From the NCBI GenBank assembly GCA_019058015.1, contig JAHLWH010000032.1, positions 1 through 35,868 of the forward strand: a stretch of 35,868 nt of DNA, in the 5' to 3' direction. The translations under genes and the position numbers were made by a program. This document shows, one piece after another, positions 1-3,987 of the stretch; position 1 is the first letter of the stretch, and each line of letters opens with the position of its first letter. The DNA is from Promethearchaeota archaeon. Lineage in GTDB: Archaea; Asgardarchaeota; Lokiarchaeia; Sigyniarchaeales; SOKP01. Under the pieces are notes generated by a model that saw nothing but the letters and a program-made list of their open reading frames with translations, ran no database searches and was not told the origin of the DNA.

Positions 1-221
1 GCTCGAAAGACTGAAATTTTTCTTTAACTTTAAATTCTTAGTTGCTCTTGTCAAAAAATTAATAAAAATTGAAATTTTATTGGAAAATATCTTGATTTTT
101 AAATGATTTTTTATAAAAAGCTTATTTTGAAAATTAAAGGAAGGTTTACACCATAAAAATTAGAGAAATACATAAAGAATTAAATACTTTTAAATACAAA
201 TATATTCTAAAATAATATAGG
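1..221 (+). promoter_or_regulatory. Putative CRISPR leader with TATA-like box
   Basis: AT-rich, ORF-free stretch directly 5' of repeat 1. TTTTAAATA at 188-196 lies ~25 nt upstream of repeat 1, typical archaeal TATA spacing. Confidence 0.65.
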
Positions 222-338
222 GTAGCAACAAAATTAGCTTCATAAAGAAGATTGAAACCCGATTATATTAAACACTAGCCTTGCCGGATGATCAGTAGCA
301 ACAAAATTAGCTTCATAAAGAAGATTGAAACTGGTAGA

Positions 339-1015
339 AATGAACAACACAATTAATGAAGTTCTTGAAAAACTGCATCAAAGAAGAGGACTTCCTCGTC
401 TTGAAATAGAAGGATGTAATTATCCGATAAATAAAGATTTTATTGAAAGGTATAAAAAGTCTAAGGCATCAATGCCTGAGCATCATGAAGGATTTTCTGT
501 CGTACATTTTGATGCGGAGAGAGGCTCGAATTGGAAAGAGTGGCTTAAACATGATGGATTCGGCGGACAGGTAGGTAGTGTAAATATACCTTCCGAATAT
601 TTAGAATATTTAGATGCACCTAAAGGAGATAGATGTGTCTATGCTATGAAAGATAAATTCGATAGACGAGATTATTATTATACTGAGATTTATCGTGAAT
701 ATATCTTGTTCAAAAAATCAGACTTGGTAAGGGTAATCAAAATTGCTTTAAAAACTAATAATAAGGTAGCAGAAGAGATTATCATAGGAAAAGAAATCGT
801 AGATAATGTGATTTGGGATGATTCAATTCCAAAGGGACCTGGCCTTAAGGTAATGGATGCTACTATTTGTTTGCGGATAGACCTGAACGAAGAACCAAGT
901 TATAAAATCTCTTTGGTGAAACCGTGATGGAATTTCATAGGTTACAGCCCCATTTCTCGTTTCGCACCCATGTCCCTGTGGGATTCGTTAAATAATGAAC
1001 AACACAATTAATGAA
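339..1015. repeat. 22-bp exact direct repeat flanking a 655-bp insertion inside spacer 2
   Basis: AATGAACAACACAATTAATGAA at 339-360 and 994-1015. Confidence 0.95.
340..927 (+). CDS. Orphan hypothetical protein (195 aa) inside the giant CRISPR spacer
   Basis: Uninterrupted 588-nt ORF. The ATG at 340 is preferred because the ORF-track TTG at 325 lies within repeat 2. No family recognised. Confidence 0.75.
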   Translation: MNNTINEVLEKLHQRRGLPRLEIEGCNYPINKDFIERYKKSKASMPEHHEGFSVVHFDAERGSNWKEWLKHDGFGGQVGSVNIPSEYLEYLDAPKGDRCVYAMKDKFDRRDYYYTEIYREYILFKKSDLVRVIKIALKTNNKVAEEIIIGKEIVDNVIWDDSIPKGPGLKVMDATICLRIDLNEEPSYKISLVKP

Positions 1016-1063
1016 TCTTAATAGTAGCAACAAAATTAGCTTCATAAAGAAGATTGAAACACC

Positions 1064-1575
1064 AATCAGAAATTTTATTGAAAACTTCACTGATCGATTT
1101 TTTGAGATCGCCCTCATCTACAGGTCCCGTGGAAAGAATTTCAAAAATATTGTTAATTACGACAATTTCCACGTTTGCATTTCCTCGCGATCCCATGAAC
1201 GTCTCGTCAGCAAACAACACGCCTCTTGGAAGGGTTTTTAATTCTTGTTCAATTACTTGTGAATTTTATTGAAATACCTGCGAAACAAAGCTCTTTTTAA
1301 AGCGACTTAACTTATCTTGAGGAACTCCCCATCTTAATGATGTGCCTGTAAGCGGATATTTTAAAACAAACAGCTCGTAAAGGATCTTTTTAATTTTTTG
1401 CTGATACAACAGCAAATTCCACGCGTCAACTTCTTTTCCAAAGCGCTTGTTGCATTTAGAGCACTTGACCCTGTGAATCCTTTTATTTGTAGGTACATTA
1501 TACCCGTCATATACGAGAAAACTTATGTAAGCACACGGATTTTGGGACTCTGATTTAGAATTCTTTTCTTGTCGA
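1064..1575 (-). mobile_element. DDE transposase remnant (IS1/IS1595/IS6-like architecture), pseudogene
   Basis: The minus frame reads NPC...DGYN...HRVKCSKCNKRF (Zn ribbon), an HTH-like segment (LTGTSLRWGVPQDKLSRF), an in-frame TAA at 1266-1268, then VLFADETFMG (first catalytic Asp). It breaks off at repeat 3. No start codon or terminal IRs seen; boundaries approximate. Confidence 0.7.
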
Positions 1576-1785
1576 ATTTAAAGCGTTTTGAGAACAAAAA
1601 AGAAGAAGGATATCACATTTCTCGATATAGTCATTCATATATTTAATAAAATCTTCTCGAGCATCTTCTTCACAGAATAACACATCATCAATTTCAGGAC
1701 GATTAGTCAAATCTTCAGCGATTTTTGAGATTTGAAATTTCTCTGAATCTTTCATAGAATAACATATGAACATATAAGCTCCCAT
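1555..1785 (-). pseudogene. TIR-domain protein, C-terminally truncated
   Basis: MFICYSMKDS (box 1) and IEKCDILLLFCSQNALNS match TIR_2. The ORF ends around the catalytic-Glu helix, where the transposase remnant begins. Confidence 0.75.
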
Positions 1786-1926
1786 TAATTGAATTCCCTT
1801 GTAAAAAATTTAGCTTAAATTTAAATATTAATTTTTTAAATCATAAGTACATATTTGAAAGTTTTCTATAATTATTAGATTTCATTAAGAATGCAATCAA
1901 TTTATAATTTAAATTAAGTTATTAAA

Positions 1927-3507: not shown

Positions 3508-3987
3508 TTAAATACATAAAAAGGAAAAAAATGCGCATTTAAAATTTTTAATTTCAGAAATATTATTTCCACCTAAGTTTAATTCTCTCAAAGTTGTAAG
3601 ATGTATTAATTCTGACACATAAGAGATATTATTTTCATATAAATTTAATTCTTCTAAATTCTTTAATTTCTCAACCCCCTTTTATCTCTGTAATATAGTT
3701 TTCTTCTGAATTTAAAACTTCTAAATTAATAACTGAAACTAATCCTTTTATTTGTGAAATTTTATTGATACTAAGATCTAATTCCCATAATTTTGTTAAA
3801 GAGTCAAGGACTTTTATTTCAGAAAAATTATTTTCTGATAAATTAAGAACCTTTAAATTGTTAAATGTAGTAAGTCCTTTAATCTCAGTAATGTAATTTC
3901 CTTTTAAATTTAGTTCTTCCAGATTTATCAATGCTTCTAAGCCTATTATTTCTGAGATTTGGTTATTACTGAGATCTAATAATACAT
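3508..3987 (-). pseudogene. Leucine-rich repeat (SDS22/internalin-like) protein, frameshifted
   Basis: 22-aa LxxLxLxxNxIxxIxGL repeats. They continue past the ORF-track stop after a frameshift in the G5 run (forward C5, ~3675-3679) as LEELNLYENNIS...LRELNLGGNNIS. The ATG at 3987 is out of frame. Confidence 0.8.

Follow-up and report, generated by a model that had tools for sequence, protein, structure and literature searches.

An intact gene lies inside the last spacer of a short CRISPR array at the start of the window, by which we mean the whole 35,868-nt stretch of Promethearchaeota DNA that was analysed. The interrupted unit is the trailer-end spacer, and is the oldest surviving unit of the array. 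Our preferred explanation, to which we assign a probability of roughly 0.55, is that an old spacer of this type III-D-associated array recombined over 22 bp with a donor of 655-bp periodicity, and that the insertion is by now a fixed and inherited single copy.

Three matches to the 37-nt CRISPR repeat, all with 0 mismatches, were found in the window (Table 1), and none of 100 shuffled sequences gave any. The second inter-repeat segment (332–1023) measures 692 nt, instead of the ~37 nt of an ordinary spacer. The initial annotation had described a 22-bp direct repeat within this segment, recombination of which would excise a 655-bp unit and leave 37 bp behind, and every one of these numbers was confirmed. 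The two copies are 100% identical, with a start-to-start spacing of 655 nt, and subtraction of 655 from 692 leaves 37 nt, which falls in the 36–40 nt range of spacer lengths in the other arrays with the same repeat. When the segment was subjected to 1000 mononucleotide shuffles, the longest exact direct repeat was 7–14 nt and a length of 22 was never reached. The 22-nt identity is present once per junction, whereas the remaining 7 nt and 8 nt of the spacer are unlike the flanks of the gene. The start codon of the open reading frame (ORF) had also been placed correctly inside the repeat, and lies in the left copy.

Table 1. Features of the interrupted CRISPR array and of the adjoining DNA (window coordinates)
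Feature	Position	Strand	Remarks
CRISPR leader	1–221	+	87% mean column identity with the upstream DNA of the arrays on C192 and C158 (same genome), up to the first repeat
CRISPR repeat 1, 37 nt, 3′ end ATTGAAAC	222–258	+	0 mismatches
Spacer 1, 36 nt	259–294	+	Missing from sister MAG G145 at ≤3 mismatches
CRISPR repeat 2	295–331	+	0 mismatches
Left 7 nt of interrupted spacer, TGGTAGA	332–338	+	Identical in L011
22-nt direct repeat, left copy	339–360	+	Holds the ORF start and codons 1–7
Intact 195-aa ORF	340–927	+	Same orientation as array transcription; homologues found; model pLDDT 87.8
Possible 22-codon micro-ORF (hypothetical)	927–995	+	One-base overlaps with the stop of the ORF and with the following ATG
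Tail, 66 nt, 45% G+C	928–993	+	Co-linearly similar to the DNA 3′ of the L016 homologue
22-nt direct repeat, right copy	994–1015	+	
Right 8 nt of interrupted spacer, TCTTAATA	1016–1023	+	Same 8 nt in L011
CRISPR repeat 3	1024–1060	+	0 mismatches; last repeat, non-degenerate
IS-like element, internal fragment (506 bp) with stop codons	1061–1571	−	Abuts repeat 3; 85% identical to G145:C14
Truncated TIR-domain gene fragment	1558–1809	−	TIR_2, E = 8.8e-7, profile positions 2–69 of 122

The initial annotation had raised the concern that the insert might belong to an unrelated contig joined through the shared 22-mer. Such an assembly artefact, in which a de Bruijn loop is traversed through the 22-mer, gains some ground from the facts that the two assemblies in which we found the insertion are both metagenomic and that the arrays are fragmented in the window's metagenome-assembled genome (MAG). 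We nevertheless regard it as hardly credible. The second MAG of the same genus (G145) was assembled independently, and its contig JAHLWE010000209.1 (locus L011) has the same architecture, in the order repeat, same 7 nt, 22-mer, gene, tail, 22-mer, same 8 nt, repeat, and same IS fragment. From repeat 2 to repeat 3 the two loci differ at 2 of 766 nt, and these strain-level differences argue against an artefact. The two spacers that lie upstream of the interrupted unit in L011 are missing from the window's genome; since the upstream spacers differ both ways, the MAGs represent two strains that have the insertion in common while the remainder of the array differs.

Public sequencing runs gave a consistent picture. 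A single 757-nt Logan contig of run X1 spans 303–1059 with 0 differences and thereby crosses both junctions, and the word length of the Logan index is 31, which exceeds the 22 nt of the repeat; the k of the Logan assembler is, we presume, also 31. The depth of this contig is 23.2 and that of the flanking contig of the same run (1032–1500) is 20.9. This even depth of insert and flank speaks against an artefact, and also against mobility, for which a comparison of coverage had been proposed as a check. Run X3 contains a 650-nt contig over 301–950, and run X5, from another study, contains a 247-nt piece of the gene with two L011-type differences, at 644 and 646. The copy number of the insert in its own genome is 1, and the ORF is uninterrupted in both strains. 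The insertion is thus a real, fixed, single-copy, and inherited feature of the chromosome.

With respect to strain differences, the insert (2 of 692 sites) has changed less than the adjoining decayed DNA (14 of 866; Fisher p = 0.010), while the comparison with a neighbouring PHP-domain gene (10 of 1452) gave p = 0.36. Both of the differences within the ORF alter the protein (A102V and M103L); constraint on the insert rests on the low substitution count, and not on an excess of synonymous changes.

The start of the window is the end of the contig, and the 221 nt that precede repeat 1 align with the upstream DNA of two other arrays of the genome, which identifies them as the leader and indicates that the array is read on the + strand. 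The identical repeats with regular spacers, the conserved leader, and the cas genes that adjoin the same repeat type elsewhere in the genome mark the locus as a CRISPR array. There are 20 copies of the 37-nt repeat genome-wide (≤3 mismatches), and within the family the repeat type is present in 2 of 135 genomes, namely the window's own and G145. No cas genes were seen among the window ORFs scanned. On contig C258, however, an array at 6–267 is followed by genes for Cas10, Csx10 (TIGR02674, E = 1.5e-82), and several Csx7-type RAMP proteins, and we therefore assigned the system to type III-D. A Cas6 gene is located on contig C217, beside another array of the genome. The window contig itself carries gyrA, gyrB, and the genes for AspRS, GatA, and GatB, and is therefore chromosomal. 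An Rfam scan of 1–1300 at permissive thresholds returned weak CRISPR-repeat rows only (E 1.8–5), along with chance rows.

Cas1 (PF01867) was not found in either the window's genome (G000, a 94% complete MAG) or G145 (90% complete), yet the leader-side spacers differ between the two strains. The genes for adaptation may have escaped assembly or may be provided in some other way. Two of the genome's array contigs, C158 (L026) and C192 (L027), share one spacer at their starts, in opposite orientation, and probably join there, judging from this overlap. Between the arrays on C158 we noted a fragment of a Card1-type CARF gene and an STIV B116-like gene (L026:1734–2075), the family of which we take to comprise ring nucleases and viral anti-type-III proteins.

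The inserted ORF belongs to a small protein family. We found 10 homologous proteins in a search of 5.8 billion proteins, and 39 cluster representatives at E ≤ 0.001 in a set of 1.84 billion. Among 400 Asgard genomes the gene is present in two, both in one genus. The G+C content of the 655-bp unit is 35.6%, as against 29.4% for the genome, and the GC3 of the ORF is 0.27, as against 0.18–0.22 in six host genes. Taken together, the narrow occurrence and the deviant composition point to a foreign origin of the gene. The ORF has no match in Pfam, NCBIfam, or PADLOC, and a single PHROG row at E = 0.048, in keeping with the initial annotation, which had noted the lack of a recognizable integrase, transposase, or Rep. 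When 40 family members were compared with Pfam, zinc ribbons were found in one, and the protein atlas held no usable match for the ORF. Foldseek searches of PDB and BFVD with the structural model gave no match at E ≤ 0.001. The best VIA score of the model (Z = 5.7) was to generic β-sheet and barrel chains, which is no convincing match; the lack of one in comparisons of a predicted model is not the same as a new fold. The frame of the ORF is open upstream into repeat 2, and the ORF listing starts at TTG 325; a longer product that starts inside the repeat is formally possible, to judge from the open frame.

Outside the two Asgard strains we located four metagenome loci with homologues, at least two of them of bacterial appearance; all four lie outside CRISPR arrays. 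By eye, the homologues show DNA-level conservation at the 5′ end of the gene. The L016 homologue, which is 56% identical to the ORF, has an exact 30-nt tandem duplication from its ATG (L016:249–308), making this the second duplicated 5′ end in the family; it could be a footprint of recombination or a contig error. A shorter paralogue with the same N-terminal LEKLH..PRLEIEG motif lies directly upstream of the homologue at L015 (L015:124–573), and L016 retains only the last ~30 codons of an upstream paralogue (L016:~145–243), from which it appears that members of the family tend to occur as tandem pairs. On the low-G+C metagenome contig L017, the homologue (96–691) is frameshifted and the next gene (758–1411; DUF2225) has one in-frame stop. 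Pseudogenization, sequencing error, or the use of another genetic code could account for these lesions.

The 66 nt behind the ORF had been called a non-coding tail. The length is correct, but the description as non-coding is not assured, given that a possible 22-codon ORF fills the tail exactly. The test for such an ORF was made post hoc, and 1866 of 200,000 shuffled tails are likewise exactly filled. Similarity of the tail to the 3′ flank of the L016 homologue is co-linear, with a score reached by 23 of 2000 shuffles, and the tail is probably the native 3′ flank of the gene, on the strength of this alignment. Positions 968–985 of the tail are 83% complementary, over 18 nt, to 825–842 inside the ORF (IPKGPG codons), which may represent a 3′ stem or chance.

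The 22-mer encodes residues 1–7 of the ORF (MNNTINE), which align with MDNSKINE and MSEEYIND of homologues, immediately ahead of the conserved LEKLHQ. It thus arrived together with the gene, and this argues against a target-site duplication generated by a transposase, by a casposase, or by off-target Cas1–Cas2 integration of a 633-bp fragment. While direct repeats do flank the insert, as such an event would leave them, a duplicated target would not be expected to encode the conserved N-terminus of a gene family. In addition, the ends of the insert lack terminal inverted repeats, no transposase is present, and Cas1 was not detected in either MAG. The insert is thus no transposon or IS element by these features, and we consider a target-site duplication very improbable.

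According to our preferred reading, the trailer-end spacer and the 5′ end of the foreign gene would have had 22 bp in common, and the simplest and most likely reason is that the spacer derived from a relative of the carrier of this gene. Recombination over these 22 bp would then have put one 655-bp unit, consisting of the gene and its 66-nt 3′ flank, into the spacer and have duplicated the 22-mer. Two aspects of the junctions underlie this proposal. Each of them joins a spacer flank to a gene flank via the same 22 bp, which is the product expected of a reciprocal crossover, and the tail lies directly before the second 22-mer, so that the donor must have had the tail ahead of a gene start, i.e., a 655-bp period. 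The donor may have been circular, at 655 bp, or have held the unit in tandem, as both forms would give the same product; tandem paralogues are present at two of the homologue loci. Inferred here are the step of homologous recombination, where the spacer came from, and what form the donor took. What is observed at the locus, a stretch shared at each junction between unlike flanks and belonging to the incoming DNA, is nonetheless what spacer–target recombination would leave.

Several observations count against this explanation. A homology of 22 bp is short for homologous recombination, although archaea may be able to use such short homology. The 7-nt and 8-nt flanks of the spacer match no gene flank, and the right flank would need a 2-nt gap if the spacer derived from a relative of the gene. 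The route by which the spacer was acquired is a further difficulty, as Cas1 was detected in neither MAG. Neither a donor nor an uninterrupted spacer allele was found in the genome itself, in the genome and viral contig collections (genome_contigs and viral_contigs), or among the contigs of four runs. Across genome_contigs and viral_contigs, the 22-mer occurs only in the two MAGs and, as one chance match, inside an unrelated Bacillota gene; viral_contigs contained no copy. A comparison of the insert with viral and plasmid sequences had been proposed, and it revealed no relative in viral_contigs, phages, or plasmids. Two other leads were set aside: an 86% match to the 37 nt on the genome's own contig C18, considered as a donor, sits in a coding region and not in an array, and a similarity between spacer flank and gene flank, seen by eye, was too weak to use.

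The initial annotation had gone further and proposed a single-crossover, attL/attR-like integration of a one-gene circle at a partly matching spacer. The geometry it invoked stands, and the 22-mer is indeed native to the gene, whereas the free 655-bp circle and current mobility found no support. In its full form, this explanation holds that the unit is a mobile, non-autonomous mini-circle that integrates and excises site-specifically, with an attP in the 5′ end of the gene, the matching spacer as attB, and a recombinase provided in trans. Besides the geometry, the two ORFs with one-base overlaps tile the whole unit, as they might in a compact circle (although the shuffled tails cited above sometimes do the same), and the duplication at the ATG of the L016 homologue hints at a recombination hot spot in the 5′ end of the gene. 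However, the search for the circle junction and the empty spacer, which had been suggested as a check, gave neither joint in 4 of 4 runs compared as contigs, which drop rare variants. The insert is present at the depth of its flank and as a single genomic copy, and it is common to two strains with otherwise different spacers. The homologues occupy ordinary linear loci outside of arrays, and no recombinase is linked to any of the four. The insert also does not resemble an integrase-driven element, in that its one ORF has no family match and there is no tRNA-type target (neither a tRNA nor a tRNA fragment was found in 1–2000). A recombinase could conceivably have acted on the insert in trans, but overall we consider a mobile mini-circle unlikely. 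We also rejected a viroid-like or Obelisk-like origin, as the unit has no rod fold (−153 kcal/mol vs. a shuffle mean of −144.4; z = −1.48, with 20 shuffles of the + strand only).

The DNA beyond repeat 3 bears on another alternative. Because the IS-like fragment lies directly against this repeat, the array has been cut off there. A full copy of the element in G145 has a 436-aa ORF between 23-nt terminal inverted repeats, and this ORF has no family in Pfam or NCBIfam. Together with the cut TIR-domain gene, the fragment makes 1061–1809 (minus strand) a decayed patch. Farther downstream, 3556–3980 holds five copies of a direct repeat, spaced 66–132 nt apart with a period of 66 nt, and no long ORF on table 11, and may be a broken repeat-protein gene, leucine-rich-repeat-like by eye. 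The IS fragment and truncated TIR gene that abut the array suggest a rearrangement-prone region, in which a linear fragment might have been anchored at one end by the 22-bp homology and joined illegitimately at the other, or have been copied in by a replication template switch, the second 22-mer arising from repair. A linear donor would need no 655-bp period. On the other hand, the ends of the duplication would have to coincide exactly with the limits of the identity between spacer and gene, and the junction of tail and ATG is like a natural stop/start overlap, suggesting that the two were natively contiguous. For these reasons, we view such an origin as unlikely.

The insertion has consequences for the guide encoded by this unit. 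Type III guides are defined from their 5′ end, with an 8-nt tag from the upstream repeat retained and the 3′ end trimmed. On this basis, a guide should still form from the interrupted unit, and it is doubtful that integration destroyed the spacer, as the initial annotation had supposed. The new guide should be identical to the gene beyond the 22-mer, and because guide and ORF would share one sense, the guide would be unable to base-pair with the transcript of the ORF. The start of the ORF lies 16 nt downstream of the Cas6 cut expected near position 324, no T-run follows the ORF, and its transcription from the leader, within the pre-crRNA, is probable.

A more far-reaching possibility, which we consider quite improbable, is that the 655-bp unit is a minimal, fully coding circle (195-aa and 22-aa ORFs) that uses spacers raised against it as landing pads. 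Once in the array, its leader-expressed, Cas6-cut RNA would be both crRNA precursor and mRNA, with a 5′ end ~16 nt before the ATG. If this were true, CRISPR arrays could serve as gene-capture and expression platforms, somewhat like integrons.

Spacers are usually seen as passive records. If our preferred reading of spacer–target recombination is correct, the locus would be a natural, inherited footprint of this process in an Asgard archaeon, in which a gene of the target has ended up inside the immune memory, intact and oriented with array transcription. Arrays would then also be entry points for foreign genes, and their transcripts may carry messages besides guides. The precise junctions at the locus make these ideas testable by reads, PCR, and small-RNA data.

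The insertion can be compared with several known systems. Integron gene cassettes are promoterless units of ~0.5–1 kb that consist of one ORF and a short 3′ element, and they are arranged in an array with one upstream promoter. The 655-bp unit resembles them in its single ORF and short 3′ element within an array that has an upstream promoter, but its tail has no attC-like single-stranded DNA hairpin (z = 0.31 and 1.32; 119 and 186 of 200 shuffles, respectively, fold at least as well, one value for each strand). As with IS elements that interrupt CRISPR arrays, foreign DNA breaks the array, and the same array ends in an IS fragment; unlike them, the unit has no transposase or terminal inverted repeats, and the repeat that flanks it belongs to the gene.

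Spacer–target recombination and prophage insertion into CRISPR repeats are already known. In the literature accessible as full text, we found no description of a gene stably integrated in a spacer with a spacer-restoring repeat. According to a preprint (Varble et al., 2020; 10.1101/2020.10.09.333658), prophage PhiAP1.1 of Streptococcus pyogenes integrates into CRISPR repeats and, like the insert described here, lies inside the array between attL-like and attR-like duplicates. That event is integrase-driven, uses the repeat as attachment site, and introduces a whole prophage with an anti-CRISPR, whereas here the site is a spacer, and the insert has one gene and no integrase. A related process is the spacer–target recombination observed in phages in laboratory work (Varble et al., 2019, Nat Microbiol, as cited in the review PMC8616872), where a spacer likewise crosses over with the sequence that it matches in the targeted element. 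The products there are reported to be phage–CRISPR hybrids, through which CRISPR loci are spread in staphylococci by transduction. In contrast to that case, only 22 of 37 nt are shared at the locus described here, and the outcome is a fixed, inherited 655-bp insertion of one gene in a chromosomal spacer of an archaeon.
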